Below, in pieces: positions 13,901 to 64,000 of a stretch of 64,000 bases of DNA. Source of the DNA: an uncultured virus (IMG/VR IMGVR_UViG_3300038828_000030) (lineage: Duplodnaviria; Heunggongvirae; Uroviricota; Caudoviricetes); the IMG/VR virus record IMGVR_UViG_3300038828_000030. One strand, given 5' to 3'. The translations under genes were made by a program, and so were the position numbers. Every line of letters starts with the position of its first letter. Within the stretch, counting starts at the first letter, position 1. Below the pieces are notes generated by a model, which saw only the letters and a program-made list of their open reading frames with translations, did not search any database and had not been told where the DNA came from.

Positions 13901-16900
13901 ACTTGACGGTCGAGTCTTTGGCGCCGGCGCCGATGATCCGGTCAAAGCGCTGCTTCACGGCCTCGATCTGCTGCTCCAGCTGGCTGCGGCGCACGCGCGT
14001 GTCGTTGCCCTTGGCGGTTTCGGCCAGCTCGATTTCCAGGTCGGCCAGTATCTCGTCGCGGATCGGTGCCACCGACTCCTCTTTCACGCCGATGCGCTGG
14101 AATGCGTCGTGCGTGATGACGATGGCATCGGGGTTGTTCAGGGTGGCCGCGGCAACAAACGCTTTGCGCCGCTCGGGCGAAAAGTTCTCGTCGTCGGCCA
14201 CCATGATGTTGGCCATGGGGTACAGCTCCATGAACTCATTGCTGAACTGCTCCAGCATGTGATTCGGGACCACGTAGATCGGCTTTTTGATGAGGCCCAG
14301 GCGCTTTTGCTCCATGCCGCCGGCAATCATTTCGATGGTCTTGCCGGCGCCGACAGCGTGTGCAAGGTACGTGTTCCCGGTTTGCACCATGCGCCAGATG
14401 GCGCGCAGCTGGTGCGGATGCAGCTTGAAGCGCAGGCTCACGCCGGGCAGCGTCAGGTGCGAACCGTCAAAGCGGCGCGGGGCAATGTTGTTGAACTGCT
14501 TGTTGTAGCGCTCCACCAGCTCGGTCGATCGGTCGGTGTCGGTCCATACCCAGCCCTTGAACTTGTCCTTGATCTTCTTCGCCATTTCGTTGGCGGCAGT
14601 GGTAGCGGCTTCGTCCGTGACGGTCTTTTTGTCCACCGTCTGCGTCACCTTGATAGAACGGCTGTTCAGCACCGCCTCCAGGATCTCGGAAGGCGAGCGT
14701 GCGGCAGTGCCGTACTCGGCCCCGGCATTGCGCTGGCTGCGCAGGTTGCCGCCGTCCACCTGCCACGTTTCCGTGCGCGGGTCGAAGGTAACGGCGCCTG
14801 CGCCAATCTCTGCAGCAAACTCGTTGACGTGCGACTCGGGCACCCAGGACGCGCCCAGTTTGGCGCTGATCTGCGATGGCCCCAGCTTCTCGGGCTGAAC
14901 GTCCTTGAGAGCCTGCACGTTGCGGCGCAGCTCGGGCTGCAGCCGTGCGGCTTCCTCCGCTTCCTCCAGCTTGGCCACCACGTCACCGGACAGGTATTCA
15001 TCGGCCAGCTGCCATTCGCCCGTGGGCGTCAGGTACACCTGGTCGCCCAGGGCCTCAATGGCTTCCTCACGCGACAAGCCCAGGCGGCGGCCCACGTCCT
15101 CCAGGTTCAGGCTGCCGATTTCATCGAGCGACACGGCCAGCGCATCGCCAATGCTGTGCACCACGCGCTCCACCGGCTTGCCGATGGTCCGCCCCTTGAG
15201 AAAAGCGGCCTTCACGATGTCGCCGTCTTCGGTGATTTCCTCCAGCGAGGTAATCAGGGCATTGTCGTAGTCCTCGCGGTACAGCTTGCGGTTCTTGAAG
15301 ATCCGCGACTCCACGCCGATGATCTTGCCGTCCTCGTCGGTGGACTTGCGCACCTGCACCCGGAAATCCTTGACCGGGCCGTGTTCCTTGCGGAAGGCGT
15401 CATAAGCCTTGTTCAGCGCCGCCAGGCTCTTTTCCCAGGGGCCATCGTTGAGCTGGTCGAAGCGCGCGGCCTGCACCTTGTCGCGCAGCCCCACGTAGCT
15501 CTTGAACCAGGCTTGTTCCTTCTCGCTCAGGTTGACCAAGCCCGCCAGAGGCTTGCCCACACCTTCATCGACCCGCATCAGCGCGCCATCCTTGCCCAGG
15601 TAGATGACGCCCTCGCGCTTCACGGCGGGGTCGAAATCAACGGCCTTGGGCTTGGCAGTGGCCTGCGCCTCCGCCTGCGGGGCATAGGCGCCCGCTGGCA
15701 GCTTATTGACCGCCGCCGCGAACTTGGCGTCCAGCTCGGCCGGCGTCTTGTCGTAGGAGACAACGGTGTACTTCTCGCCACCCATGCCGTTGCTGTTGAT
15801 GCGCCGACCCTCGTCGTCCACATTGCCGCTGATGCGCTGCTGGCCCAGGACCATGTGCGGGTTCGCGGCAAAGTATTCGTTGACCACCACGGGGCCGTCC
15901 GGCGTCTGCACCGTCGCCACATTCGCCCATGCGTGCCCACCAGGTGCCTCGCCAGGGGCGCGCTTCTTGAGGAAAATCACGTCCGTCACCACGCTGGTGC
16001 CGGCGTTGCCCTCGAAGGCTGTGGATGGCAGACGGATGGCGCCCAGCAAGTCGGCGCGCTCGGCCAGGTACTTGCGCGCCTTGTCGCTTTGCTTGTCCAT
16101 CGTGCCCTTGCTGGTCACGAACACCTGGATGCCTCCGGGGCGCACCAGGTCGATGCCCTTGGCAAAGAAGAAGTCATGCAGCATGAACCCCTTCTTCGCG
16201 TACTCGGGGTCGCCGTAGATCTTGGTCTGCGAGAACGGCGGGTTGCCCACGTTCACGTCAAAGAAGTTCTTCGGGAATTTGCGCTTGATGAAGTCGCCAT
16301 GAATCATGTTCTGCTGGGGTGACAGCAGGCCGGCAATCAAGGCGGTGGGGCCGTCGAACTCGATCCCCGTGTAGCGCGACTGCGCGCGCACATCGTTGGG
16401 CATCAGCATCGCAAAGGAGCCGATGCCCATGCCAGGCTCAAACACGTTGCCGCCCTTGAAGCCCATGCGATCCAGCGCGCCCCACACGGAACGAATGATT
16501 CCTTCGCTGGTGTAATGGGCGTACTGGCTGGATTGGAGAATGGACTGCTGCCACTCGCGCGGCAGTGCATCGATGCGCTCGGCCAGTGGCTTCCACCGGG
16601 CTTCGCGCACCAGGTTGGGCCAGATCAGCCGGTTGGGCTCCTGCCTCTTGGCATAGTCGCCCGGGATGGGGAACAGGTCGTTGCGAATGGCGCTGGCGCC
16701 AAAGCCGACATACTTTGCCAGCTGTTCCTGCTCTTGTGGGGTGGCGGGGCGCTTTTCCGAATCAATCTTGATGGCCAGCTCGATCAGGTCGATATTGCGC
16801 TTGGCCGTTTCAAACCACGATCCGGTGCGGGTCAGCCCTTCGGGGCCTGGAACATAGTCTGTTCCAGCATTTTCATTTGGTCCTCGGCCGGCATTGCCAG

Positions 16901-19900
16901 AAGCTGGCTTAGCGTTGCTTCCTCGTACACCTCCAGCATTTCCGCGTACTTTTCGGGGTTTGCCGTCTTGAACGCCTGCGCCTGGGGCGACAGTGGGCTG
17001 TCCTGGTTCGGTGGTGGTGTCTGGGTTAGCATTTTGGGCGTCCTTGGTATCAGTATCTGCCTTTTTATCGGCATCGGCAATGGTGGTTGGCTCAGGCTCC
17101 ACCACGGCCTGCAACTCCTCCAGCGAATCAAACCCGGCCACTTCCTTCTTGGCCGTCACGCCCTTGTCCTTGTGGCGCCCGGCCACGGCGATGTATGCGC
17201 CCTGCAGGGTTTCAAAGGGGATGGCGTCGGCGGTTTCCTGGTCGATGCCCTGCGCAATGAAGTCGCGCACGTAGGCCACGGCCTTCTGGAACGTCACGGC
17301 GCCCAGCTCGATGGCGCCGTCGAACAACTCGATGACGATGGGCAGCAGTTTTTGTTCTTCCTCTGGCGTCCAGTTCATCCGCGTGTTCTTGGATGCCAGG
17401 GCGGCCAGCTTGCCCAGGGCGCCAAGCATCTTTGCCTTGGCGGCCTTCTCGCGCTCGGTCAGTGCGTCGGTCTTGGCGCGGGGCTGGTCGGCGCTGGGCT
17501 TCTTGGCGACCGGCTTTTGCGCAGATGTCTTTTGTTCTTTCGCCTGCGCCTGTTGAATGGCGTCATAGACCATCTTGCGCAATGACGGGAACACGTCAAA
17601 GGCATCCTGCATGTCGATGTTGCGCAGTTTTTTTGGCTGGCGGGCATCTATGCGGTTGTTGATGTCATGCGCCTGCTCGCGGTTCAGCCCGAACGCCTCC
17701 ATCAACAAGTTATCGCGCCCGCTTTTGCCAAGTGGGCTGCTCAGTAATACCTGAGCACGGTCGGTCATTCCATCTAGTTGATTCAGGCTGTACACGAAGT
17801 CTTTTAGATACTTCGCGGCTTCTTCCGGCGTCATGTCGGAAGAAGCACTTTCTGCGGCCTGCGAGGTGGCCGCTGGCTTCTTGTCGCCCACGACAACAAC
17901 CTCCAGCTTGCCGCTGTCTTGGGCTGCCTGCATCAGTGGGTTAGTGGATTGGGCTTCTGGAGCTTGACTGGCGGGGGCTACAGCCTCTTTTGATGCTGAA
18001 ACCGGCTCAAGGAAACCACCAAATCGCGGCTTGCCATCCTGAATCTGATAGATGGATCCATCCTTACGTTCATAAAGCTGGTTGCCATCCACATTCACGC
18101 CAATGTTCTTGTCATCGGCGGGTGTAATGGTTTCACGGGTAGCCTGCTTCGCCTTCAACTCCTGCGCATAGTCGTACTCAATTTTGGTTACTTCAAAGTC
18201 GCCAAGCCAGTAAACATCTTTTTTACCAGCTTCTTTGACCTTGCGGTCGTGTTCAGCTTGCTGGCGGTTGTCTGCGCGAAATATCTGCCTCCGAGACATC
18301 GGCTTGATCTTGTCCTCTTGGGTGATGGACGTTTTGAGGCCATCTGAAACCTTGTTTTCCACCCACTCGCGGCGAGTCATCACATTGCCAGTTTCCGAGT
18401 CGAGAACCTGCTTGGACAGCACCGCATCCTTGCGGTGCTCCATCAATGTCTTGGGGCGGTTCGCCGCCTTGCGGGCTTCCTCAGCATCCAGTCGTGCCTT
18501 GTCGGCCGCATCCTGCTCAGCCTTTGCGGCCTGCTGCTCTGCATCGCGCTTGGCTTCGCGCTCTGCCGCAGCCTGGGCTTGCTCCAGGGTGTCGTGCAGA
18601 GAATCGCCTCCGATGGCGCGCTCACCAGCCGCACGTCGGCGCCGGTTGTCGGGCGACTCCACCGCCCACATGGATTTCACCTCGTCGCCCACCTTGACCT
18701 TGGTGGGGTAGATGCGGGCGCCGTTGTAGGTGGTTTCTTGGGCTGGAGATGCCTCCTGCTGTGGCACTTCAAGCACATATCCCATGCGCCGATCTTCGCC
18801 AGGGTTGTAGCCGGCGAAAGTGTTGCGCTGGTCTGCCAATTCTGCTGGCGTTGCTTTGCGAACGACTGCCTTGCCAGCCAACTGCTTTGACCGGGCCATA
18901 GCGTCTGCCGTTGCCTTGTTCGGCACCACTATTGGCATTCCAGTCCGTGGGTCGGAGAACAGTGGCTTTTGGGTTTCTGCTACACCTTTTGTAGCTTTCT
19001 GCGCTTGACCGGCTGGCGTTTCGGGCTGATTTAGCCCTTGTTTTGTGGCGGGTTCAGTCGCGGATTCGGCCTTGTCCGCCTGCTCCTGCGCGTCCCGAAT
19101 CTGATCTACCAGTTTCTTGCGCTGCGTCTTGAGCGTGACTGGCACCTTGCGGCTTTTCATGGCCGCCTCGATGTCTCCGCCGCCCTTTGCCATGCTGGCT
19201 GGTGCGGCAGCAAGAATCTTGTCTTCAACCTCGCGCAACTGGCGGCGCAGATCGGCCACGGCTTGATCTTCAGTCAGCGCCGCTTTGACCGGCTCGGGCA
19301 GGTCGTTATGCGGGCTGGTGGCGGCTTCGTTGGCGGCTGCCGTGACGCTTTCTGCGGCTTGGGCTACCGGTTGCGTGCTGCGCAACTCGCCCACCAACAC
19401 ATCCAGCTTCTTGCCATCGGCTCCAACCACGCGCGCCATGTCCACCATGCCGAGGCCCGGTGCGGCTTGGCGGAACAACGCTTCAACCGTGCTGCGGCCG
19501 ATGGTGCGGCCATTCACGTCCACCGCGTCACCAACCTTGAACCCGTCCAACTCCCGCAAGGGCGCGCTGTTGATTGGGTCAGGCTTGCCGGTGAACAACG
19601 ATGACACCGGCTGCTCTGTTGTCGCACCATCCAGCCGGCCGGCATCACCTGTCTGCCGCTGTCCAGCACCGACAACAGGTGCCTCGCCTGCAACCGATTC
19701 GCCTGGCCCGTGCGGCGCAGCAGCGCCAGCGCCCGGTGTGCGCTCATCTGCCAGCCGTAGATTTCGTGCAGTTGCACCATGCTGTTCCCCCGTTTTCTTG
19801 ATCCTGCCAACAAACCCACCGCCCGCCTCAACCACCTCGTGACTGTCCTGCAAGCCCAGCCGGTTCACCTCGCGCTGCGCCGCCGCCTGACTGGCAAACG

Positions 19901-53845: not shown

Positions 53846-54030
53846 GCGCCCTGCACCGCTCATGGCTGGCCGACCAGGCCGCCCAGGCCGCCCAGGCCCA
53901 CGAAGGCCCGCAGACGGCCGAGGACTGGGGCAACGCCCTGGACAAGCCAACCCCCGAAATGCTGGCCGCAGCCGAGCGGCTGCGCCAGTCGATCAATCAG
54001 CGCCGCGCACAGCGGCAGGAGGCGATATGA
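53842..54030 (+). CDS. Hypothetical protein, 62 aa (start MSALHRS)
   Basis: ATGA overlaps on both sides. Confidence 0.55.
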   Translation: MSALHRSWLADQAAQAAQAHEGPQTAEDWGNALDKPTPEMLAAAERLRQSINQRRAQRQEAI

Positions 54031-54800
54031 GTAAAGATATTTTTGGCGACGACGCCAAGCTGGGCGACAGGGCCAAGCTGGGCAACGGGGCCACGCTGGG
54101 CAACGGGGCCAAGCTGGGCAACTGGGCCACGCTGGGCAACTGGGCCACGCTGGGCGACAGGGCCAAGCTGGGCAACGGGGCCACGCTGGGCGACGGGGCC
54201 ACGCTGGGCGACGACGCCACGCTGGGCGACGGGGCCACGCTGGGCGACGGGGCCACGCTGGGCGACGGGGCCAAGCTGGGCGACTGGGCCAAGCTGGGCG
54301 ACGGGGCCACGCTGGGCAACGGGGCCACGCTGGGCGACAGGGCCACGCTGGGCGACGGGGCCACGCTGGGCGACGGGGCCACGCTGGGCGACGGGGCCAT
54401 GCTGGGCAAATGGGCCACGCTGGGCGACGGGGCCACGCTGGGCGACGGGGCCATGCTGGGCAAATGGGCCACGCTGGGCGACGGGGCCACGCTGGGCGAC
54501 GACGCCACGCTGGGCGACGGGGCCACGCTGGGCGACAGGCTCACATCCGAGGGCGTCAGGGTGTACGCGACGATGACCATGAGCAATGTGGACGGGTCTG
54601 GTCGTCGAATACAGATATACGTGCACCCGGCCGGCATCCTGATCCGAGCAGGGTGTTTCAGGGGCAGCCTGGACGAGTTCTGCGACAAGGCGCGGCTCGA
54701 AGGCAAGGTGCGTTACGCAACAGTCGTCCGTGCTGCTGCAGCGGCACTGGCTGAGGATTGCCGCGAACGCGGCATCACCGGCGGCTGGGGCGAGGAATGA
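54027..54800 (+). CDS. Hexapeptide-repeat (left-handed beta-helix) protein, 257 aa (start MSKDIFG)
   Basis: SD AGGAGG; 27 G-D/N-x-A-T/K-L repeats, then IRAGCFRGSLDEF C-domain. Confidence 0.8.
   Translation: MSKDIFGDDAKLGDRAKLGNGATLGNGAKLGNWATLGNWATLGDRAKLGNGATLGDGATLGDDATLGDGATLGDGATLGDGAKLGDWAKLGDGATLGNGATLGDRATLGDGATLGDGATLGDGAMLGKWATLGDGATLGDGAMLGKWATLGDGATLGDDATLGDGATLGDRLTSEGVRVYATMTMSNVDGSGRRIQIYVHPAGILIRAGCFRGSLDEFCDKARLEGKVRYATVVRAAAAALAEDCRERGITGGWGEE
54045..54540 (+). repeat. 18-bp coding tandem repeat, ~27 copies
   Basis: Consensus GGCGACGGGGCCACGCTG. Confidence 0.95.
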
Positions 54801-55129
54801 AAACCATCCACGCCCCCGAGATGCGCAGCACCACCGAGCGCTGCATCACCACCAGCACCGGCATCGCCATCGGACGATGCCACGTCCGCAAACCGCCGGC
54901 CCGTGTGGCCGGCAGTGTGAGCGGCCCGCACCGTCGCCCTGGCATCGCCGCCCGCGTGCTGGGCGTGATGGGCAGCATGCGCGCGCTGTTTGTCTGCATC
55001 GCCATCTGCGCGGCCGCGCTGCTCTTGAGCGCGTGCGGCCCGACAGACACCGAGGCGCTGCAGGACGTGGCGCTTGATCTGCAAGACGCGCAGGCTGCGG
55101 CCGTAGTCGCGGCGGCCAGCCGCAAGTGA
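54797..55129 (+). CDS. Hypothetical membrane/lipoprotein-like protein, 110 aa (start MKTIHAP)
   Basis: ATGA overlap; hydrophobic stretch ending LLLSACG. Confidence 0.5.
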   Translation: MKTIHAPEMRSTTERCITTSTGIAIGRCHVRKPPARVAGSVSGPHRRPGIAARVLGVMGSMRALFVCIAICAAALLLSACGPTDTEALQDVALDLQDAQAAAVVAAASRK

Positions 55130-55146
55130 TCAACCACGAGGAAACC

Positions 55147-56136
55147 ATGAACGCCATCACGAAACACGAGGGCCGCCTGCCTGCCCTGCAAATGGACGAA
55201 CAGGAGCTGATTCAGGTGCTGCAATCGAGCCTGTACCCGGGGGCATCACTGTCCAGCATCAAGATGGTGCTTGGATACTGCAGGGCGTCTGGGCTCGATC
55301 CGATGCGCAAGCCCGTCCACATCGTGCCCATGTGGGACAGCAAGGCCAAGCAAATGCGGGACGTGACGATGCCGGGGATAGGCCTGTATCGAACGGATGC
55401 AGCCCGCACTGGCGAGCACGTCGGCACGGATGATCCGGTGTTTGGACCCATGGTCGAGTACGAACTCAGCGGCTCAAAAGTCACGGTGCCGGAGTGGTGC
55501 AAGGTCACTGTCTATCGTCTCAAAAACGGCATGAAGTGCGCTTTCACAGCCACCGAATACTGGATCGAGAACTACGCCACGGCCGGCAAGGACAGCGCCG
55601 CGCCAAACACCATGTGGAAGAAACGCGGTCGCGGTCAATTGGCGAAATGCGCCGAGGCCCAGGCTCTGCGCAAGGCGTTTCCCGAAGTCGGCAGCCAGCC
55701 CACCGCCGATGAAATGGAGGGCAAGGTGCTGGACATGGGGCCGGCCGAAGTCGTGCCGCAATCGCCTGCGCACTACCCCGCCGCCGAGTTCGACAAGAAC
55801 TTGCCCGCCTGGCGCAGGGCCATCGAGGCCGGCAAGAAGGCCGCCGAAGACCTGATCGCCATGGTCGAAACCAAGGGCGCACTCACCGACGAACAGAAGG
55901 CCGCGCTGCGCGCCATCAAGCCGCCGCAGCCTGCCTCTGACGTGCAAGACGTGCAGCCCAAGGACGAAGCGCCAGCATTCACCTACGCCCAAGTGGCCGA
56001 CAAGCTGTCCGCCGCCACCGACGTGGAGCAATTGGCCGAAGCCGGCAGCCTGATCGGAGCCGTGTCCAACGCGGATCACCGCGCCGAACTCGTGACCCTG
56101 TACGAACAACGCAGCGCCGAAATGGAGGCCGCATGA
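55147..56136 (+). CDS. bet: ssDNA-annealing recombinase, Red-beta/Bet family
   Basis: YCRASGLDPM.KPVHIVP, GIGLYR..AARTG, MWKKR..GQLAKCAEAQALRKAFP; SD GAGG. Confidence 0.88.
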   Translation: MNAITKHEGRLPALQMDEQELIQVLQSSLYPGASLSSIKMVLGYCRASGLDPMRKPVHIVPMWDSKAKQMRDVTMPGIGLYRTDAARTGEHVGTDDPVFGPMVEYELSGSKVTVPEWCKVTVYRLKNGMKCAFTATEYWIENYATAGKDSAAPNTMWKKRGRGQLAKCAEAQALRKAFPEVGSQPTADEMEGKVLDMGPAEVVPQSPAHYPAAEFDKNLPAWRRAIEAGKKAAEDLIAMVETKGALTDEQKAALRAIKPPQPASDVQDVQPKDEAPAFTYAQVADKLSAATDVEQLAEAGSLIGAVSNADHRAELVTLYEQRSAEMEAA

Positions 56137-57923
56137 AGACCCTGACCCTGCAACAAGGATCGCCCGAATGGGCTGCTCACCGCGCTCGAAGCCTAAACGC
56201 CAGCGAGCTATCTGCGGCCATGGGCCTGTCCTCGTACATCACCAGGTCGGCCCTCGTCAAACAGAAGGCGACAGGCATCGCCCCAGAGATTGACGCGGCC
56301 ACTCAACACCGATTCAACAAGGGCCACGAGTTCGAGGCTATCGCGCGTCCATGGGCAGAGGAAATCATCGGGGAAGAACTTTTCCCTGTCGTACTGGCTG
56401 GCGAAGTTGATGCCCTGCCGCTGTCTGCGTCGCTTGATGGACAAACCTTGACGGGTGATGTGACGTGGGAACACAAGAGCGGCAACGCGACGCTTCTGGC
56501 CCGTTTGGATGCTGGCGTCATCCCTGACGAATATCACCCCCAGATGGAGCAGGGCCTGCTGCTGTCTGGTGCAACTCGGTGCCTATTCATGGCGTCCAGT
56601 GGAGACCGTGAAGCCATGCGCTATGCGTGGTACGAGTCAAATCCTGAGTTGCGAGCCAAGATTGTTCCGACCTGGAGGCAATTTCAAGCGGATGTTGCCG
56701 CCTACGTCCCCACCGAACCCGCCGCGCCCGTCATGGCCGCGCCCATCGAAAGCCTGCCCGCCGTCGTGGTGCAGGTGCAAGGCGCGCTGACCGTTGGCGG
56801 CAACCTGGACGCCTTCGGTCAGGCCCTGCGCTCGTTCATCGAGCGCATCCCCGCAAGACCGGCAACTGATATTGAGTTCGCAAACTGCGAAGCCGCCTGC
56901 AAGGCGCTGAAGAGGGCCGAGGACGCACTGACCCAGGCCGAAGACGGCGCGCTGGCGCAGATCAGCGACGTGGAGCTGATGCGCCGCACCGTGGCCGACC
57001 TCAAGGAGCTGGCACGGTCAACCCGCCTCGCGACTGAAAAGCTGGTCAAAGCCGAGAAAGACGCGCGCCGCACCGAGAAGGTCATGGCCGCGCGCCAAGC
57101 GTTTGAAACCCACGTCACGCGCCTGCAGATGGACATCAAAGGCGTGCGCCTGATCGTGCCCATGCCAGACTTCGGCGGCTCCATCAAGGGCCTGAGCAGC
57201 CTGGCAAGCATCGACGACAAGCTGACCGCCGCGCTGATCGCCGGCAAGGCCGAGGCCAACACCCTCGCCAGCCGGATCGCGGGCAACCTGCAAACGCTCG
57301 ACAGCGTGCCGCAGTACGCCCACCTGTTTGCTGACCGGCAGGAGCTGGCCTACAAGGACGCCGAGACGCTTGAGCTGCTGATGCAGAAGCGCGTCGATGC
57401 CGAGCGCGACCGCATCGAAGCCGAGCGCCAGCGTATCCAGCAGGACGAGGAACGCAAGGCCCGCGAAGCCGCCGAGCGCCAGGCCGAAGCGGAGCGCCAG
57501 CGCATCCGCGCCGAAGAGCAGCACAAGGCGCAGATGGAAGTCGCCGAAAAGCTGAAGGCTGAACAAGAGGCCGAGCGCCAAGCCAACGAAGACCGCCGCC
57601 GCATAGAAGCCCAGGCCGCAGAAGCCAAGAAGGCCGAAGCCGCCGCCCAGGCACAGCAGGCGATCCAGCAGGCCGAAGCGCCAGCCGCGCCAGCACCGGC
57701 GCCATGGGACGCCGACGAGGCGGCCACGCTCAAGTTGGGCGATGTGAACGCGCGCCTGGCGCCGATCCACGTCACCGCTGATGGCCTGCGCTCCATCGGC
57801 ATTGAGCCGGCCGGGCGCGAGAAGAACGCGACGCTGTACCGCGAAAGCCAGTTCGCGGAAATCTGCCAGGTGCTGGTGCTGCACCTGCAATCCGTCGTGC
57901 AGCCATCCGAGGCCACGGCATGA
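56133..57923 (+). CDS. YqaJ/lambda-exonuclease family protein with long coiled-coil, 596 aa
   Basis: QGSPEW..R..NASE, GHEFE..AR, SASLDG, WEHK, Q.EQGLL. Confidence 0.88.
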   Translation: MKTLTLQQGSPEWAAHRARSLNASELSAAMGLSSYITRSALVKQKATGIAPEIDAATQHRFNKGHEFEAIARPWAEEIIGEELFPVVLAGEVDALPLSASLDGQTLTGDVTWEHKSGNATLLARLDAGVIPDEYHPQMEQGLLLSGATRCLFMASSGDREAMRYAWYESNPELRAKIVPTWRQFQADVAAYVPTEPAAPVMAAPIESLPAVVVQVQGALTVGGNLDAFGQALRSFIERIPARPATDIEFANCEAACKALKRAEDALTQAEDGALAQISDVELMRRTVADLKELARSTRLATEKLVKAEKDARRTEKVMAARQAFETHVTRLQMDIKGVRLIVPMPDFGGSIKGLSSLASIDDKLTAALIAGKAEANTLASRIAGNLQTLDSVPQYAHLFADRQELAYKDAETLELLMQKRVDAERDRIEAERQRIQQDEERKAREAAERQAEAERQRIRAEEQHKAQMEVAEKLKAEQEAERQANEDRRRIEAQAAEAKKAEAAAQAQQAIQQAEAPAAPAPAPWDADEAATLKLGDVNARLAPIHVTADGLRSIGIEPAGREKNATLYRESQFAEICQVLVLHLQSVVQPSEATA

Positions 57924-58123
57924 GCAGCACCGTCGCCGACCTCTACGACGATGACCTGGATGCCTTCGAGAGCGACCTTGAGGACGCTCGCATGCAGGCT
58001 GAAAGTGACTGGGACGAGCAGTTCGTCGCCGACATGAAGGCGCGCTACGACCAGTACCAAGGCCGCATGTTCATCAGCCCCGCGCAGCACGAGCAACTGC
58101 TGCGCATTGGAGGAAACGAATGA
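57920..58123 (+). CDS. Hypothetical acidic protein, 67 aa
   Basis: ATGA overlap. Confidence 0.65.
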   Translation: MSSTVADLYDDDLDAFESDLEDARMQAESDWDEQFVADMKARYDQYQGRMFISPAQHEQLLRIGGNE

Positions 58124-58311
58124 ACGCCACCCTCTACGACCCCTCCGACGTGGCATTCGGCGCACAGCCGCGCCTGGTGTGCGCCGGCTGCGGCCAGATT
58201 GAAGTCGGCACCTACGAACCCGTCTGCCCCGAGTGCCGCAAGTCGCTGGAGCAGGCCGGAATCCTGAAACCAAAAAGCGAGCCGGCTCAGACCGGCCCGC
58301 TGGGTGAATGA
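58120..58311 (+). CDS. Small zinc-ribbon protein, 63 aa
   Basis: CAGCG..CPEC; SD GGAGG. Confidence 0.6.
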   Translation: MNATLYDPSDVAFGAQPRLVCAGCGQIEVGTYEPVCPECRKSLEQAGILKPKSEPAQTGPLGE

Positions 58312-58320
58312 AAGCACAGC

Positions 58321-58551
58321 ATGAAAAACACTGATCAATCGCGCCCGCCGTTCAAAATCAGCGGCGTCGCCACCATCAAGCACCTGAATGTCCGCAAGGA
58401 AGGCCCGGAGGACGAGAAGGTTCTGGCTGACGATGCTGCGCCCGAATGCACTTGTGCAGCGAAAGACATGACCTTTGGCCGATGCTGCAAGGTGACGCCC
58501 AACGCCCCGAGTTCAGCCGACGCGAAGCGGTCGGCTGGAATGAACTGTTAG
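58321..58551 (+). pseudogene. Chimeric/truncated ORF at the duplication junction
   Basis: N-part MKNTDQ..HLNVRKEGPEDEKVL is fused at 58426 to the same C-terminus as ORF 61187..61555. Confidence 0.5.
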
Positions 58552-58553
58552 AA
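58497..58553 (-). mobile_element. attC: Integron attC-like site a
   Basis: Minus strand TTCTAAC AGTTC ATTCCAGC CGACCGC TTC GCGTCG GCTGAAC TCGGGGC GTTGGGC. Confidence 0.8.
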
Positions 58554-58563
58554 GGCTGTATCC

Positions 58564-58800
58564 ATGAACAGACCAGAGCGAATTTACAACGTGAGCCAAA
58601 CGCAATTGAGCGTTGCTAGGTTTTACGGCGGCTGCAAATTCAACGGCGCGGATTATCACTACGACGCCGAAAGCGACACGCTGACACGCATGGACATTTG
58701 GCAAGCGCGATGCGCCAGCAGCAAGAAAGAAGCCGCGAAAGCAGCAAAGGCAGAGCGAGAAAAATGGATGAAGGCACAGCAGAGTTTTGCCGCCTTCTAA
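58564..58800 (+). CDS. Cassette gene B, hypothetical, 78 aa
   Basis: Starts 10 nt after core site GTTAGAA; stop TAA lies inside the complementary TTCTAAC. Confidence 0.75.
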   Translation: MNRPERIYNVSQTQLSVARFYGGCKFNGADYHYDAESDTLTRMDIWQARCASSKKEAAKAAKAEREKWMKAQQSFAAF

Positions 58801-58847
58801 CGCCGGAAATAAGCCGCCGCAGGTCGGCCTTGATTGACCTGTTATGC
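58795..58847 (-). mobile_element. attC: Integron attC-like site b
   Basis: Minus strand GCATAAC AGGTC AATCAAGG CCGACCTGCGGCG GCTTATT TCCGGC GTTAGAA. Confidence 0.82.
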
Positions 58848-58867
58848 AGAAACTTTAGGAATACCAA

Positions 58868-59119
58868 ATGGACACGATACAGCAAGAGCTTCGCAAGCCA
58901 GCGCACTATCTGAGCATGAGAAAGCGCGAGCAGGCTGCAAACTACATTGATAAGTTGCAAGCCGCCTTGAACCAGTACAGCGCAGACGAAGTGATGCTTA
59001 CGCACCAATCAACTATCGCAGCGCAGGCCGAGCAAATCGAAGCCTTGACGCAGGCGATAGTCGAGCGAGACGCGATCATTTCGCAGTACATCGCAGCACT
59101 TGGCTATGTTGCGGCATAA
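58868..59119 (+). CDS. Cassette gene A, coiled-coil hypothetical, 83 aa
   Basis: SD AGGA after core site GTTATGC; stop TAA lies inside the complementary GCATAAC. Confidence 0.7.
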   Translation: MDTIQQELRKPAHYLSMRKREQAANYIDKLQAALNQYSADEVMLTHQSTIAAQAEQIEALTQAIVERDAIISQYIAALGYVAA

Positions 59120-59165
59120 CCCGTGATTAGGCGACAAGCCCGCCCCGCGCCACGTCGCCTAATCA
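59114..59165 (-). mobile_element. attI-like site with 12-bp inverted repeat
   Basis: Minus strand GTC-GCCTAAT-CACGG-GTTATGC (L, 5 bp, R); inverted repeat TGATTAGGCGAC 59124-59135 / GTCGCCTAATCA 59154-59165. Confidence 0.55.
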
Positions 59166-59217
59166 GCCACTGGCGCAAGCAAACCCCAATAGGCAAACCT
59201 AAAAAACCGAGGACGTA

Positions 59218-59886
59218 ATGACCCCGCTTGTACGTGAAATGGCAGCCATCGTGCCGGAACCAGAAACCGCGCACTGGTTCGATCTGGGCACGATCCCCGG
59301 GCGCATCGAAGCCCAACGGGTGTATTGGGATGACATTCGCCACATGCCGTACCCGCGCACCATCGTGGTATTCATCACCGACAAAGGCAGCAAGGCCGCA
59401 TGCTGGATACAGGCATCGGAACATTCGCTGTCCATGGCCTACCTGATGGTCGATCCAGGCAAAGCGCCTCGCTTTTCCATCCCCATTGTCATCACCGAGG
59501 TGGATGGCGAGCTGCGCTATGAAGCCAAGGGCGGCGACGGCAAGGCCGCTGCGGGCGTGCTGTGTGCCATCGCCAAGCGCCTGCAAACCGCCAGTGCCGC
59601 CTACCGCCCCGAGTCGATTGGCACACCAGCGCAGCAGCGCAAGCGCGCGGCCAAAGGCAAGAGGCCACTGTTTGCATGGCACACCGTCACCATCGGCGCT
59701 ACGCCCAAAGTAGCCATTGCTACGTCAGATGTAGCTGGCACGCACGCCAGCCCACGCGCGCACGACAGGCGCGGGCACTGGCGCACCTACCCCAGCGGCA
59801 AACGCAGCTGGGTCAAGCACTGCCGCGTCGGCAATCCTGCGGACGGGGTGGTGTTCAAGGATTACCGGATCAGGAGCGAGAAATGA
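59218..59886 (+). CDS. Hypothetical phage protein, 222 aa
   Basis: SD GAGG; C-terminal SPRAHDRRGHWR..GKRSWVK..VG motif common in phage early proteins. Confidence 0.75.
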   Translation: MTPLVREMAAIVPEPETAHWFDLGTIPGRIEAQRVYWDDIRHMPYPRTIVVFITDKGSKAACWIQASEHSLSMAYLMVDPGKAPRFSIPIVITEVDGELRYEAKGGDGKAAAGVLCAIAKRLQTASAAYRPESIGTPAQQRKRAAKGKRPLFAWHTVTIGATPKVAIATSDVAGTHASPRAHDRRGHWRTYPSGKRSWVKHCRVGNPADGVVFKDYRIRSEK

Positions 59887-60155
59887 GCACATACACACCA
59901 CCCGACAAGATCGAGATTTACGCCGCCGCGCTGAAAAGCGACATCAACTCTGAGCGCTTCCAGGTTGTGGAGAGCGGCAGGCTCGAAACCTACTGGATCG
60001 GCACGGTATATGGCGGCGGCGTCGCAACCGAGCGCGGGCACAAATTTCGGACTGCAGAAGAGGCGTGGGACAACGCAAGCAAATTTGTGGAGCGCTGCGC
60101 GGAGATCGTCAGCGAGCGCGACCGCGCAGCCAAGGCAGGAGATCAGCATGGCTGA
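59883..60155 (+). CDS. Hypothetical protein, 90 aa (start MSTYTPP)
   Basis: SD AGGAG; ATGA overlap. Confidence 0.6.
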   Translation: MSTYTPPDKIEIYAAALKSDINSERFQVVESGRLETYWIGTVYGGGVATERGHKFRTAEEAWDNASKFVERCAEIVSERDRAAKAGDQHG

Positions 60156-60229
60156 AAGCACGGTCTGGCGCGTGATGCACCCAGACGGCTCGCGCACGGT
60201 GGTGGGCGGTGGTTGCTCGGAGAAAGACA

Positions 60230-60838
60230 ATGTCGCGTGCGCTTGATGTGGTGACGCTGACCGGCGAGGAATACGACGACCTCATGGAATGCAAAGAGAT
60301 GGTCGCCTCACTACTAGCCCAGTTGAGCGCCGCGAAAGACCGAATTGCCGAATTGACGCCAGTTGCTGGAATGGACTGGCGGGAAACGATGCAGCGCATG
60401 CTGACACGCATGGAGGAAACAGACCGCTGGCCTGCGATATGCGACGAGGCGCGGGCCGTCCTGTCGCTGGCGAATGATGCCACCAGGGAGCCTGCCGCCT
60501 ACCTGTGGGGCGGCTGCCTCTGGCGCACGGACGAAATGGGGCGCGGCAGACCTGGGGCAGTCGAACTGTATCGAGCGCAAACGCCGCTGACCGATGCCGA
60601 CATTACCGCATTGCTTCCGATATGGCAGCAGGGATCATGGACGCTGCCAGACTACGGCAGATGGGTAGCGCGGGCCGTCGAGCGGGCGCACGGGATCAAG
60701 ACATCGCACAACCTATGCCTATCCTGCGGGCACAGCATCGATGCCCACGACAAGCAATACGGCTGCGCAGAGGACGGGTGCGATTGCGAGACGCCCAACG
60801 ATCAGCATAACCGGCCCGCTTCAGCGGGTCCGGGTTGA
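60230..60838 (+). CDS. Mosaic hypothetical protein, 202 aa (start MSRALDV)
   Basis: SD GGAG; PLTDADI..RAVERAHGI module and Cys-rich tail; reads into attC-c. Confidence 0.65.
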   Translation: MSRALDVVTLTGEEYDDLMECKEMVASLLAQLSAAKDRIAELTPVAGMDWRETMQRMLTRMEETDRWPAICDEARAVLSLANDATREPAAYLWGGCLWRTDEMGRGRPGAVELYRAQTPLTDADITALLPIWQQGSWTLPDYGRWVARAVERAHGIKTSHNLCLSCGHSIDAHDKQYGCAEDGCDCETPNDQHNRPASAGPG

Positions 60839-60852
60839 TGCGCCAGTTGGGC
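60793..60852 (-). mobile_element. attC: Integron attC-like site c
   Basis: Minus strand GCCCAAC TGGCG CATCAACC CGGACCCGC TGAA GCGGGCC GGTTATG CTGATC GTTGGGC. Confidence 0.82.
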
Positions 60853-60866
60853 GCGGGAGGTGAGAG

Positions 60867-61190
60867 ATGGGGACATACGTTGTTTGGTGCCCGGACCTGG
60901 GCCAGGATCAGGAAGACGGTGCGACGATCCCGGCGACCGACCCCGCCGATGCGGCGGAAGGGTGGGCCGAATGGCACGACCGCAGCAGTGCCGAATACCG
61001 GATTGCCAGCGGGCGCGAGGAGATCGTGATCGTCCGCGACGTTGAGACAGGCGAGCAGCGCGAATGGATTGTGCGCGGCGAGGCGATGCCGTACTACACG
61101 GCGCAGCCTGGGGAGTCCGCGACGATCCGGGCGCAAGTGGCGCCGGGCCGATGGGAGGATGTTCCTAGACGTAGCGAGGCCAACGAATGA
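60867..61190 (+). CDS. Cassette C gene 1, hypothetical, 107 aa
   Basis: SD GGAGGT right after core site GTTGGGC. Confidence 0.7.
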   Translation: MGTYVVWCPDLGQDQEDGATIPATDPADAAEGWAEWHDRSSAEYRIASGREEIVIVRDVETGEQREWIVRGEAMPYYTAQPGESATIRAQVAPGRWEDVPRRSEANE

Positions 61191-61555
61191 AATGGCAGCC
61201 GATTGAAACCGCACCTACAGACGGCACCCGCATCCTGCTGCGCGGCAGGGGCGGCAAGATTGCGGATGGGCACTACGGACAGCCGGATGGGTGGGCAAAC
61301 CCGAAGCGTTTTGTCTGGCCGTACATCCATGCTAATCCGACGCACTGGGCTCCGCTCCCGTTGATTGCTGCTGCGCCGGAAAACAAGAAATTGCGTGCCG
61401 CCATCGCAAAAGCAACAGGACGTGTGGTCGCTGACGATGCTGCGCCCGAATGCACTTGTGCAGCGAAAGACATGACCTTTGGCCGATGCTGCAAGGTGAC
61501 GCCCAACGCCCCGAGTTCAGCCGACGCGAAGCGGTCGGCTGGAATGAACTGTTAG
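61187..61555 (+). CDS. Cassette C gene 2, DUF551-like, 122 aa
   Basis: WQPIETAP.DGT.ILL..PTHW.PLP; reads through attC-a'. Confidence 0.75.
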   Translation: MKWQPIETAPTDGTRILLRGRGGKIADGHYGQPDGWANPKRFVWPYIHANPTHWAPLPLIAAAPENKKLRAAIAKATGRVVADDAAPECTCAAKDMTFGRCCKVTPNAPSSADAKRSAGMNC

Positions 61556-61557
61556 AA
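61501..61557 (-). mobile_element. attC: attC-like site a' (copy of a)
   Basis: Identical to 58497-58553. Confidence 0.8.
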
Positions 61558-61567
61558 GGCTGTATCC

Positions 61568-61804
61568 ATGAACAGACCAGAGCGAATTTACAACGTGAGC
61601 CAAACGCAATTGAGCGTTGCTAGGTTTTACGGCGGCTGCAAATTCAACGGCGCGGATTATCACTACGACGCCGAAAGCGACACGCTGACACGCATGGACA
61701 TTTGGCAAGCGCGATGCGCCAGCAGCAAGAAAGAAGCCGCGAAAGCAGCAAAGGCAGAGCGAGAAAAATGGATGAAGGCACAGCAGAGTTTTGCCGCCTT
61801 CTAA
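61568..61804 (+). CDS. Cassette gene B, second copy
   Basis: Identical to 58564..58800. Confidence 0.7.
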   Translation: MNRPERIYNVSQTQLSVARFYGGCKFNGADYHYDAESDTLTRMDIWQARCASSKKEAAKAAKAEREKWMKAQQSFAAF

Positions 61805-61851
61805 CGCCGGAAATAAGCCGCCGCAGGTCGGCCTTGATTGACCTGTTATGC
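61799..61851 (-). mobile_element. attC: attC-like site b' (copy of b)
   Basis: Identical to 58795-58847. Confidence 0.8.
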
Positions 61852-61871
61852 AGAAACTTTAGGAATACCAA

Positions 61872-62123
61872 ATGGACACGATACAGCAAGAGCTTCGCAA
61901 GCCAGCGCACTATCTGAGCATGAGAAAGCGCGAGCAGGCTGCAAACTACATTGATAAGTTGCAAGCCGCCTTGAACCAGTACAGCGCAGACGAAGTGATG
62001 CTTACGCACCAATCAACTATCGCAGCGCAGGCCGAGCAAATCGAAGCCTTGACGCAGGCGATAGTCGAGCGAGACGCGATCATTTCGCAGTACATCGCAG
62101 CACTTGGCTATGTTGCGGCATAA
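61872..62123 (+). CDS. Cassette gene A, second copy
   Basis: Identical to 58868..59119. Confidence 0.68.
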   Translation: MDTIQQELRKPAHYLSMRKREQAANYIDKLQAALNQYSADEVMLTHQSTIAAQAEQIEALTQAIVERDAIISQYIAALGYVAA

Positions 62124-62169
62124 CCCGTGATTAGGCGACAAGCCCGCCCCGCGCCACGTCGCCTAATCA
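62118..62169 (-). mobile_element. attI-like site, second copy
   Basis: Identical to 59114-59165. Confidence 0.55.
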
Positions 62170-62221
62170 GCCACTGGCGCAAGCAAACCCCAATAGGCAA
62201 ACCTAAAAAACCGAGGACGTA

Positions 62222-62890
62222 ATGACCCCGCTTGTACGTGAAATGGCAGCCATCGTGCCGGAACCAGAAACCGCGCACTGGTTCGATCTGGGCACGATCC
62301 CCGGGCGCATCGAAGCCCAACGGGTGTATTGGGATGACATTCGCCACATGCCGTACCCGCGCACCATCGTGGTATTCATCACCGACAAAGGCAGCAAGGC
62401 CGCATGCTGGATACAGGCATCGGAACATTCGCTGTCCATGGCCTACCTGATGGTCGATCCAGGCAAAGCGCCTCGCTTTTCCATCCCCATTGTCATCACC
62501 GAGGTGGATGGCGAGCTGCGCTATGAAGCCAAGGGCGGCGACGGCAAGGCCGCTGCGGGCGTGCTGTGTGCCATCGCCAAGCGCCTGCAAACCGCCAGTG
62601 CCGCCTACCGCCCCGAGTCGATTGGCACACCAGCGCAGCAGCGCAAGCGCGCGGCCAAAGGCAAGAGGCCACTGTTTGCATGGCACACCGTCACCATCGG
62701 CGCTACGCCCAAAGTAGCCATTGCTACGTCAGATGTAGCTGGCACGCACGCCAGCCCACGCGCGCACGACAGGCGCGGGCACTGGCGCACCTACCCCAGC
62801 GGCAAACGCAGCTGGGTCAAGCACTGCCGCGTCGGCAATCCTGCGGACGGGGTGGTGTTCAAGGATTACCGGATCAGGAGCGAGAAATGA
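62222..62890 (+). CDS. Hypothetical 222-aa protein, second copy
   Basis: Identical to 59218..59886. Confidence 0.7.
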   Translation: MTPLVREMAAIVPEPETAHWFDLGTIPGRIEAQRVYWDDIRHMPYPRTIVVFITDKGSKAACWIQASEHSLSMAYLMVDPGKAPRFSIPIVITEVDGELRYEAKGGDGKAAAGVLCAIAKRLQTASAAYRPESIGTPAQQRKRAAKGKRPLFAWHTVTIGATPKVAIATSDVAGTHASPRAHDRRGHWRTYPSGKRSWVKHCRVGNPADGVVFKDYRIRSEK

Positions 62891-63159
62891 GCACATACAC
62901 ACCACCCGACAAGATCGAGATTTACGCCGCCGCGCTGAAAAGCGACATCAACTCTGAGCGCTTCCAGGTTGTGGAGAGCGGCAGGCTCGAAACCTACTGG
63001 ATCGGCACGGTATATGGCGGCGGCGTCGCAACCGAGCGCGGGCACAAATTTCGGACTGCAGAAGAGGCGTGGGACAACGCAAGCAAATTTGTGGAGCGCT
63101 GCGCGGAGATCGTCAGCGAGCGCGACCGCGCAGCCAAGGCAGGAGATCAGCATGGCTGA
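62887..63159 (+). CDS. Hypothetical 90-aa protein, second copy
   Basis: Identical to 59883..60155. Confidence 0.58.
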   Translation: MSTYTPPDKIEIYAAALKSDINSERFQVVESGRLETYWIGTVYGGGVATERGHKFRTAEEAWDNASKFVERCAEIVSERDRAAKAGDQHG

Positions 63160-63233
63160 AAGCACGGTCTGGCGCGTGATGCACCCAGACGGCTCGCGCA
63201 CGGTGGTGGGCGGTGGTTGCTCGGAGAAAGACA

Positions 63234-63842
63234 ATGTCGCGTGCGCTTGATGTGGTGACGCTGACCGGCGAGGAATACGACGACCTCATGGAATGCAAAG
63301 AGATGGTCGCCTCACTACTAGCCCAGTTGAGCGCCGCGAAAGACCGAATTGCCGAATTGACGCCAGTTGCTGGAATGGACTGGCGGGAAACGATGCAGCG
63401 CATGCTGACACGCATGGAGGAAACAGACCGCTGGCCTGCGATATGCGACGAGGCGCGGGCCGTCCTGTCGCTGGCGAATGATGCCACCAGGGAGCCTGCC
63501 GCCTACCTGTGGGGCGGCTGCCTCTGGCGCACGGACGAAATGGGGCGCGGCAGACCTGGGGCAGTCGAACTGTATCGAGCGCAAACGCCGCTGACCGATG
63601 CCGACATTACCGCATTGCTTCCGATATGGCAGCAGGGATCATGGACGCTGCCAGACTACGGCAGATGGGTAGCGCGGGCCGTCGAGCGGGCGCACGGGAT
63701 CAAGACATCGCACAACCTATGCCTATCCTGCGGGCACAGCATCGATGCCCACGACAAGCAATACGGCTGCGCAGAGGACGGGTGCGATTGCGAGACGCCC
63801 AACGATCAGCATAACCGGCCCGCTTCAGCGGGTCCGGGTTGA
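63234..63842 (+). CDS. Mosaic 202-aa protein, second copy
   Basis: Identical to 60230..60838. Confidence 0.62.
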   Translation: MSRALDVVTLTGEEYDDLMECKEMVASLLAQLSAAKDRIAELTPVAGMDWRETMQRMLTRMEETDRWPAICDEARAVLSLANDATREPAAYLWGGCLWRTDEMGRGRPGAVELYRAQTPLTDADITALLPIWQQGSWTLPDYGRWVARAVERAHGIKTSHNLCLSCGHSIDAHDKQYGCAEDGCDCETPNDQHNRPASAGPG

Positions 63843-63856
63843 TGCGCCAGTTGGGC
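63797..63856 (-). mobile_element. attC: attC-like site c' (copy of c)
   Basis: Identical to 60793-60852. Confidence 0.8.
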
Positions 63857-63870
63857 GCGGGAGGTGAGAG

Positions 63871-64000
63871 ATGGGGACATACGTTGTTTGGTGCCCGGAC
63901 CTGGGCCAGGATCAGGAAGACGGTGCGACGATCCCGGCGACCGACCCCGCCGATGCGGCGGAAGGGTGGGCCGAATGGCACGACCGCAGCAGTGCCGAAT
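63871..64000 (+). CDS. Cassette C gene 1, second copy (partial)
   Basis: Identical to the start of 60867..61190. Confidence 0.62.
   Translation, partial: MGTYVVWCPDLGQDQEDGATIPATDPADAAEGWAEWHDRSSAE

Follow-up and report, generated by a model that had tools for sequence, protein, structure and literature searches.

The stretch analysed here, the 64,000 nucleotides of record IMGVR_UViG_3300038828_000030 from an uncultured virus of the Caudoviricetes (hereafter "the window"), belongs to a phage of ~63% GC that carries genes for a P22-like portal, a terminase, NinG and a primase-helicase. On its + strand an early operon runs from ~55.1 kb, beginning with RecT-like and RecE/YqaJ-like genes and continuing with small open reading frames (ORFs), most of them without a family match. 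It is among these small ORFs that we found an array of gene cassettes bounded by sites of the attC type, the type read by the integron integrase IntI. Integrons are known as bacterial platforms. The phage window presents six attC-type sites (three of them distinct, called E1, E2 and E3) within 5.4 kb and no integrase was detected in its 64 kb, which makes the array by definition a cluster of attC sites lacking integron-integrases (CALIN). Three imperfect palindromes, each repeated at +3004, and the limits of three cassettes had been proposed by an original prediction made from the letters of the DNA alone; the palindromes were found exactly where it had placed them, and its limits for the cassettes A, B and C are correct (Table 1). 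The sites recur at +3004 because the DNA from 58426 to 64000 is an exact tandem duplication.

Table 1. Position and content of the features of the cassette array and of the surrounding early operon in the window.
Feature	Position	Strand	Remarks
attC-type site E1	58497-58553, copy 61501-61557	+ (= bottom strand)	cores GCCCAAC (left) and GTTAGAA (right); GAA loop
attC-type site E2	58795-58847, copy 61799-61851	+	cores TTCTAAC (left) and GTTATGC (right)
attC-type site E3	60793-60852, copy 63797-63856	+	cores GCCCAAC (left) and GTTGGGC (right)
Cassette B, 298 bp	58503-58800, copy 61507-61804	+	E1 and a 78-aa ORF (58564-58800); terminal TTCTAA
Cassette A, 319 bp	58801-59119, copy 61805-62123	+	E2 and an 83-aa ORF (58868-59119); terminal GCATAA
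Cassette C, 708 bp	60799-61506	+	E3, 107-aa phrog_21008 protein (60867-61190) and 122-aa DUF551-like ORF (61187-61555)
Degenerate site E4	59114-59180, copy 62118-62184	+	left core GCATAAC, 12-bp perfect stem, without GTT right core
Multi-gene block	59120-60798	+	p222 (59218-59886), p90 (59883-60155), p32 (60148-60246), p202 (60230-60838); terminal GCCCAA
Chimeric 76-aa ORF	58321-58551	+	unrelated N-terminus (58321-58425), then the last 77 bp of cassette C (58426-58502), running on into E1
Exact tandem duplication, period 3004 bp	unit 58426-61429; second copy from 61430 to the window end (64000)		2571 of 2571 bases identical
RecT-like gene	55126-56136	+	Pfam RecT 2.6e-22; early operon backbone
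RecE/YqaJ-like exonuclease gene	56133-57923	+	Pfam YqaJ 3.7e-05
p67, then zinc-ribbon p63	after 57923, to 58311	+	early operon backbone

Read along the + strand, a cassette starts with the C of a RYYYAA|C core and continues with the folded site, the GTTRRRY core, a ribosome-binding site and at least one phage gene, to end with RYYYAA. Whole cassettes measure 263-1029 bp and adjacent detected sites lie 16-2939 nt apart. The 107-aa protein of cassette C matches PHROG 21008 at 4.9e-41, and the ORF that follows it is one which we take to be DUF551-like, Pfam having given no match; the second copy of this cassette begins at 63803 and is interrupted by the end of the window. The 78-aa ORF of cassette B had no match in either Pfam or PHROG, and the PHROG matches in the multi-gene block are all weak. 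Both the DUF551-like ORF and p202 lack a stop codon within their own block and terminate inside the neighbouring site (E3 in the case of p202), so that their C-terminal tails vary with the cassette that happens to adjoin. We also observed that the two ORFs end in a Cys-rich motif followed by T-P-N, the latter being encoded by the core.

On the + strand the aligned sites have the following layout: RYYYAAC, an unpaired spacer with an initial G, the L-box stem, a variable GC-rich stem-loop, a second spacer and GTTRRRY. The unpaired spacers have 5-6 nt on the left side and ~5 nt on the right side, the terminal stem-loop often carries a GAA loop, and in the window sites the 3' arm of the L-box stem presents a bulged G and a bulged T. 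According to the passages of Nivina et al. (2016; PMC5027507) that deal with the folded site, R' of the attC bottom strand reads 5'-RYYYAAC-3' and is cleaved in AAC, and the folded bottom strand has extrahelical bases near L'' and a central spacer that stays unpaired; its terminal structure varies and is often GAA. The + strand of the phage sites fits this description. The attC_aadA7 oligonucleotides given in the supplement of PMC9892861 have the same layout, and one of their strands closely resembles the + strand of several phage sites. The layout, like the covariation described below, matches attC, and the architecture put forward by the original prediction stands with one correction: it had seen an extra C in the 5' arm, whereas the bulges are the G and the T of the 3' arm. 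Its R'' and R' labels were swapped as well; the + strand corresponds to the attC bottom strand, because the extra bases sit in the 3' arm.

The structure is maintained through changes in sequence. Aligning 25 sites, we found AAC and GTT invariant in all 25, together with the bulge-side T before the inner stem; a bulged base is again present in the 3' arm. Compensatory changes affect 6 of the 12 predicted pairs of this alignment, and changes on both sides occur in 6 of the 9 pairs of the L-box. The lengths of the sites range from 52 to 123 nt. When the set was extended to 65 distinct sites, 94.8% of the cells were paired (75.4% after shuffling), with helix 1 paired at 100%. The covariation score was 0.467, as compared with 0.129 for shuffled sites (none of 500 shuffles reached the observed value) and with at most 0.081 when the register was slid.

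Recognizing such sites by their general appearance is not sufficient. A loose finder for the pattern AAC-hairpin-GTT returned 22 matches on the + strand of the window, 18 of them outside the array; the bare pattern is not rare and, because of these many chance matches, the finder was replaced by covariance models. Folding energy alone is uninformative because the DNA has 63% GC: in a sliding-window scan E3 ranks within the top 1.5% and both E1 and E2 fall outside it, and the hairpin energies are unexceptional. A first covariance model, R1, was built from the phage sites, and in the 64-kb window it found E1 (46.7 bits, E 7e-10), E2 (44.8 bits, E 2e-09) and E3 (42.5 bits, E 1e-08) only, in two copies each and on the + strand, the single exception being one partial match at E 0.78. 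The same model recognized sites of real integrons. It found 8 sites in the cassette array of the Vibrio phage Va_90-11-286_p16, all on the strand coding for intI, 4 sites left of the intI gene of Stutzerimonas stutzeri KOS6 and 2 beside the intI gene of a metagenome-assembled genome (MAG) of the Hydrogenophilales, again all on the intI strand. In phage TJE1 it matched 3 sites, which lie on the strand opposite the genes and at the 3' ends of orf1-3; the portion of Qi et al. (2023; PMC9892861) concerned with this phage reports experimental validation of two of its attC sites.

The reciprocal search was performed with a second model, R2, trained on 16 real attC sites only and run on both strands of the window and six related loci (120,751 bases). 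All of its 41 matches fell on the + strand and at R1 sites; at E<=1, those in the 64-kb window were E2 (26.0 bits, E 0.007) and E1 (23.9 bits, E 0.02) only. With R2, a covariance-model search of both strands, of the kind proposed as a check for the original prediction, comes out in its favour. The degenerate site E4 is absent from the matches of both models at E<=1. In addition, a site of one related locus (L040:2125-2211) is almost identical to the attC of a host integron lying beside intI (L053:8233-8307). These data show that, in structure as well as statistically, the phage sites are the equivalent of true attC sites.

A property of neighbouring sites bears on the way in which the array is organized. 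In the window, the 7-mers located 3' of one hairpin and 5' of the next are reverse complements of each other, and this holds for three pairs out of three, as originally noticed: GTTAGAA (58547) with TTCTAAC (58795), GTTATGC (58841) with GCATAAC (59114), and GTTGGGC (60846) with GCCCAAC (61501). The comparison was widened to the loci, numbered L, of 34 viral and 7 genome contigs with genes for relatives of the 107-aa phrog_21008 protein. Over the window and these related loci, sites defined by the covariance models showed a perfect 7/7 match of the cores in 43 of the 55 adjacent pairs, with many different 7-mers involved, and the rule also holds in the KOS6 integron, the ORFs of which lie on the strand opposite the attC matches. 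Even with the loosely defined elements, exact complementarity was seen in 13 of the 118 unique adjacent pairs, when shuffling gave a mean of 1.8 and a maximum of 8 (none of 5000 shuffles reached 13). The complementarity rule between neighbouring sites is far beyond chance.

Delimiting the units from core to core in these loci yielded 57 cassettes, of which 46 are singletons. Cassette C, that is E3 with the phrog_21008 gene and the DUF551-like gene, was found in 7 loci, its neighbours differing from one locus to the next. Both of its edges lie at AA|C: in ungapped comparisons of 21 pairs, identity over the terminal 30 nt at either end of the cassette was 0.98, against 0.35 and 0.33 in the adjoining 30 nt outside. 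Its protein recurs, at 94-98% identity, in contigs labelled Stutzerimonas, Thiobacillus, Thauera, Hydrogenophilales, Gammaproteobacteria and Acetobacteraceae. Arrays occur in at least three unrelated phage backbones (a RecT/RecE lambdoid one, one with DNA polymerase A and primase, and one with an SNF2 helicase), their cassette sets differ, and the largest counts 13 sites (L030). The stretch itself is present in activated-sludge, wastewater and freshwater metagenomes of 11 studies, and in the metagenome contigs of four runs the loose ends cluster at the cores 58494-58506, 58553, 58846 and 60797. As far as comparison of sequences can establish it, this shows that cassettes have moved as discrete units between unrelated phages, through crossovers in the AAC triplet of the + strand. 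The original prediction had asked whether relatives differ at the core sites; the edges of cassette C do so, at AA|C, whereas other breakpoints lie at the right core or away from any core.

The orientation of the genes was the unforeseen aspect of this array. In the phage loci, 69 of the 70 R1 matches lie on the gene strand. The coding strand was assessed through the GC content of codon positions, which designated the + strand in 33 of 56 cassettes and the minus strand in one (22 were ambiguous), and through the PHROG matches (E<=1e-5) of 13 of the 48 + strand cassette ORFs, which support coding on that strand, as does the 4.9e-41 match of the 107-aa protein. In three real integrons the R1 matches are on the strand encoding intI, opposite the cassette genes, as judged from the annotated coding sequences in L046 and from the ORFs in KOS6. 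The canonical rule, in which the gene is carried by the attC top strand and the attC lies 3' of it, holds for KOS6, the Vibrio phage integron and TJE1, and does not hold in the phage loci. Here the + strand is both the coding strand and the recombinogenic bottom strand of attC, so that genes and sites stand in the inverse of the arrangement of canonical integron cassettes; since the genes are borne by the bottom strand, each attC travels upstream of its own gene. This inverted arrangement is new: literature searches found no prior description of it, the published orientation having been compared in TJE1 only. It bears on how cassettes are created, on the strand and the state of replication or transcription in which attC folds, and on whether phages make use of host IntI, because the integron model predicts otherwise for expressible cassettes.

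What the cassettes carry can be read in part from the relatives. The 13 ORFs with PHROG matches include 3 DNA methyltransferases, a Lar-like restriction-alleviation protein, a Mom-like protein (also matched in Pfam) and a polynucleotide kinase, which points to a probable enrichment of the relatives' cargo in counter-defence functions. To the cassette ORFs of the window (78, 83 and 107 aa, and the DUF551-like one) no function could be assigned. No promoter-like site was found for the cassettes, and their expression would come from the phage early promoter, not from the integron promoter Pc.

As for the enzyme, a tyrosine recombinase was encountered in one of 59 ORFs from 14 related loci, directly 3' of the array of L027; it was rejected as an IntI, having no match to TIGR02249, a model to which the IntI of the Vibrio phage scores 494 bits. 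Another related locus, L005, carries a serine recombinase. Five genomes encode relatives of the phrog_21008 protein, and an IntI above the family cut-off was found in two of them. One of the two is KOS6, in which the intI-like frame (G001:C2:1916320-1916985, seen in L048/L052) lacks model positions 135-225 and has at least four attC sites on its left; on the same scaffold a homologue of the phrog_21008 protein (L039) lies ~30 kb from this frame, with no model match around the homologue. As neither the window nor the related phage loci yielded an IntI, we infer that a host IntI acts in trans: this enzyme, or an IntI encoded beyond the window, would catalyse the excision of cassettes as circles and their insertion. 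Since IntI genes are under SOS control, the production of IntI during the SOS response could coincide with prophage induction and with an abundance of single-stranded phage DNA.

We consider it probable that the locus is a CALIN-type cassette array, located in the early-left operon of a P22-like/lambdoid phage, 3' of recT-recE, with inverted genes and moved by an IntI of the host or encoded beyond the window. The attC architecture, the covariance models, the core rule and the 7 contexts of cassette C all support what the original prediction had proposed, an array of cassettes of the integron type with no integrase in the window. Several observations weigh against this interpretation. No integrase was identified for the phage: the Phage_integrase domain (PF00589) is absent from the 35 large ORFs of the window that were scanned, in keeping with the array without integrase of the original prediction, and the array is not a complete integron with an intI matching TIGR02249 beside it; in three of the five genomes with relatives, most of them incomplete MAGs, no IntI above the cut-off was found. 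The evidence for mobility is comparative throughout. The window E3 does not figure among the R2 matches at E<=1, copies of E3 in L042, L026, L017 and L012 scoring 22.6-24.3 bits, and R2 is not fully independent of R1, because its training sites were chosen and aligned by means of R1. The core rule is broken in 12 of the 55 adjacent pairs, and in only 3 of these 12 did the expected core lie in between, at a site missed by the model.

Other difficulties of the same kind concern the breakpoints. Some of them are at the right core: other, E1-like hairpins precede the phrog_21008 gene in L007 and L030, and L032 and L043 differ in this way as well. The contig ends at 58553 and 58846 are also on the right-core side, where cleavage of the bottom strand alone does not explain them. 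Such breakpoints may correspond to the seam between an attC type and the different genes to which it became joined, or may be due to the other strand recombining on rare occasions. In ~19 loci a different hairpin, T2, which neither model detects, is situated 5' of the phrog_21008 gene; it was located in the ~60 nt preceding this gene in L006, L008-L011, L013, L014, L016, L019-L025 and L033. T2 begins with a RYYYAAC-like core, within which the upstream stop codon falls, and continues with a GC-rich stem; it has no GTT core and occurs twice in L006, L011 and L025. As a candidate attC it was rejected, on account of the missing GTT core and of the absence of any model match. Homology also breaks away from any core, at 60862, 61201 and 61381, and from these breaks and the T2 loci it follows that ordinary recombination shapes these regions too. 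Finally, the loci were chosen through the phrog_21008 gene, so that the linkage between E3 and the gene downstream is in part a product of ascertainment, and the linkage of hairpins with their flanks gives weak support.

The diversity of the arrays could in principle have been generated elsewhere, if a stretch of a bacterial integron or CALIN had been acquired once by illegitimate recombination, leaving a fossil whose sites are inert in phages and whose variants come from bacterial integrons only. The lack of an integrase among the scanned ORFs agrees with this scenario, as do the left end of the array, which is the non-core junction 58425|58426, the occurrence of one attC type common to a host integron, and the chromosomal-looking context of cassette C in L040, beside an insertion sequence (IS) transposase and efflux genes. 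We hold it to be unlikely, since a single acquisition fits poorly with at least three unrelated phage backbones that each possess a different cassette set, with a cargo which is phage-type and co-oriented with the phage operon, opposite to the host integrons tested, and with contigs from several metagenome studies that differ exactly at the cores. One may also ask whether another enzyme acts on the sites, a phage-encoded recombinase or some other structure-specific enzyme of single-stranded DNA. Such an enzyme would account for the failure to find IntI in the window or the related phage loci and for sites that are inverted relative to canonical cassettes, and the array adjoins recT/recE, the products of which make single-stranded DNA. 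We judge this quite improbable: no candidate gene is common to the different backbones, nothing that IntI reads in an attC has been lost from the sites, neither the two bulged bases nor the AAC cleavage triplet, and they are near-identical to sites located beside true intI genes.

A last explanation would dispense with site-specific recombination altogether. The hairpins would act on the RNA only, as signals for processing, stabilization or termination, and the mosaicism would be due to homologous recombination at conserved intergenic sequence. The hairpins are indeed transcribed within the operon and overlap stop codons, and homology also breaks away from the cores, as noted above. We give this explanation hardly any credence, since it leaves without cause the 7-mer complementarity across cassettes, the edges in the AAC triplet and the cross-recognition with real attC sites; moreover, terminator-like sites are not commoner than in shuffled sequences (7, against a shuffled mean of 8.1). 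An array of mobile attC cassettes served by IntI thus remains the preferred interpretation, and it is in this framework that we compare the locus with known systems.

Cassette arrays in phages are of a kind already known and rare (PMC9892861). In the sections of their article devoted to phage genomes, Qi, Rajabal, Ghaly, Tetu and Gillings (2023; PMC9892861) report integron components in 21 of 10,705 genomes, including 17 CALINs of 2-4 predicted sites each, with methyltransferase cargo noted, and IntI1-dependent recombination of 5 out of 6 phage attC sites. The original prediction had held attC arrays to be rare or absent in phages: rare they are, absent they are not, since phage attC clusters without an integrase have been published there. 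The present array resembles those CALINs in having attC sites and cassettes and no nearby intI, and DNA methyltransferases, here in the cassettes of relatives, are common to the cargo of both; these relatives contain up to 13 sites (L030), against the 2-4 published. The difference in orientation was seen with TJE1, the only published phage CALIN compared, in which the genes are on the attC top strand, in contrast with the bottom strand here. Three aspects are new: how large and how widespread the arrays are, the proof by comparison that cassettes are transplanted at AA|C, and the inverted gene/attC arrangement. One cassette has been transplanted between contigs labelled with three proteobacterial classes. 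The system is concrete and testable, the strand-specific assay used for the published phage attC sites being directly applicable to it.

The likeness to sedentary chromosomal and mobile integrons extends to the attC architecture, the complementarity of cores, the size of the cassettes, their high diversity and one shared attC type. Unlike them, the window has no recognizable attI or Pc and no intI detected in it, expression would depend on the phage early operon, the genes are inverted, and some ORFs stop inside the neighbouring site. Among phage systems, the mobile regulatory cassettes of T4-type phages known as PeSL, reportedly described by Arbiol, Comeau and Krisch in 2010, are said to combine an early promoter with a stem-loop and to move by homologous recombination. 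Both systems comprise small phage ORFs that lie between repeated stem-loops and are shuffled among phages, possibly via circles; they differ in that no promoter-like site was found here and that the crossover is in a fixed triplet. Finally, bioRxiv 2022.09.11.507474 deals with the insertion of cassettes by IntI at non-att genomic sites. In L005, L015, L018, L027, L030 and L044 the array finishes with the expected RYYYAAC core, and the DNA beyond it does not resemble attC, a trace of the kind that a secondary-site insertion would produce. E4 of the window and the DNA that follows the last cassette of L017 (from ~6314) both begin with RYYYAAC and share the motif TAGGCGACAA.

A broader picture can be proposed tentatively, and we would place it slightly short of an even chance: the phages of wastewater Proteobacteria may keep a cassette pool of their own in a "phage format", with the attC flipped so that the recombinogenic bottom strand codes, and with transcription from the phage early promoter; host IntI, induced by the SOS signal to which prophages also respond, would shuffle it among unrelated phages and exchange it with host integrons, and its cargo would be largely counter-defence. 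If such a pool exists, the coding strand would be the lagging-strand template whenever the operon runs with the replication fork, and the pool would be the mirror image of the "biobanks" of defence systems reported in bacterial integrons.

The 3004-bp tandem duplication is another matter. Its identity begins exactly at 58426, with none to the left of this position, and its left edge 58425|58426 is not a core site, being 77 bp left of the cassette boundary. At this edge the last 77 bp of cassette C are joined behind an N-terminus unrelated to them; in the chimeric ORF that results, relatives match residues 33/37-76 only (tblastn), and 58426-58502 is the C-terminal tail of the DUF551-like protein. 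The intact DUF551-like gene is the ancestral form, according to the relatives. We conclude that the duplication is a separate and recent event and not the product of an attC x attC recombination. In run X1, possibly that of the source sample, contigs cover the flank at a depth of 14.6, the unit at 24.2 and 58426-58506 at 48.2; those of run X4 cover unit and flank at about equal depth, and there a different attC-like continuation follows 58506. The joint 61429->58426 seen in metagenome contigs (57000-61440) is uninformative for the duplication, as it equals the intact DUF551-like gene. Most likely, judging from contigs that are unphased, a direct repeat of ~81 bp (58426-58506, 61430-61510) was formed before the 3-kb duplication, which would then have arisen by unequal homologous exchange; an assembly effect or a circular form is the alternative for the 3-kb duplication. 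In one contig of run X4 (depth 6.1, with 24 letters on the shorter side of the joint), 59214-59891 is replaced by 12 other letters. This replacement removes the whole p222 gene, a gene-sized difference of presence or absence that is not at an attC core.

The remainder of the window was examined for related sequences and further features. Searching 57900-61600 by blastn and the chimeric 76-aa ORF by tblastn against 50,697 phage records gave no match, an exact 37-mer of the window was absent from the viral contigs searched, a scan of 54000-64000 with Rfam at E<=10 returned chance-level matches only, and the closest relatives of the RecE-like protein (L001-L004) had no covariance-model match. The RecT/RecE backbone from 55126 to 57923 has matches to PHROG 2449 at 1.1e-94 and 7655 at 4.8e-145. 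The RecE-like protein contains a charged, repetitive part rich in Ala, Glu, Arg and Gln (57390-57610), whose DNA repeats itself imperfectly in direct orientation, at intervals of 69 and 99 nt. Immediately 5' of the early operon, repetitive DNA (53862-54800) encodes a 312-aa protein of hexapeptide repeats, of the left-handed beta-helix kind. On the minus strand, an ORF of 4821 aa (7965-22430) combines LPD39, ART-PolyVal (ADP-ribosyltransferase), Eco57I-type methylase and SNF2/ResIII helicase domains; it is a giant "polyvalent" protein, of the type injected by some phages.

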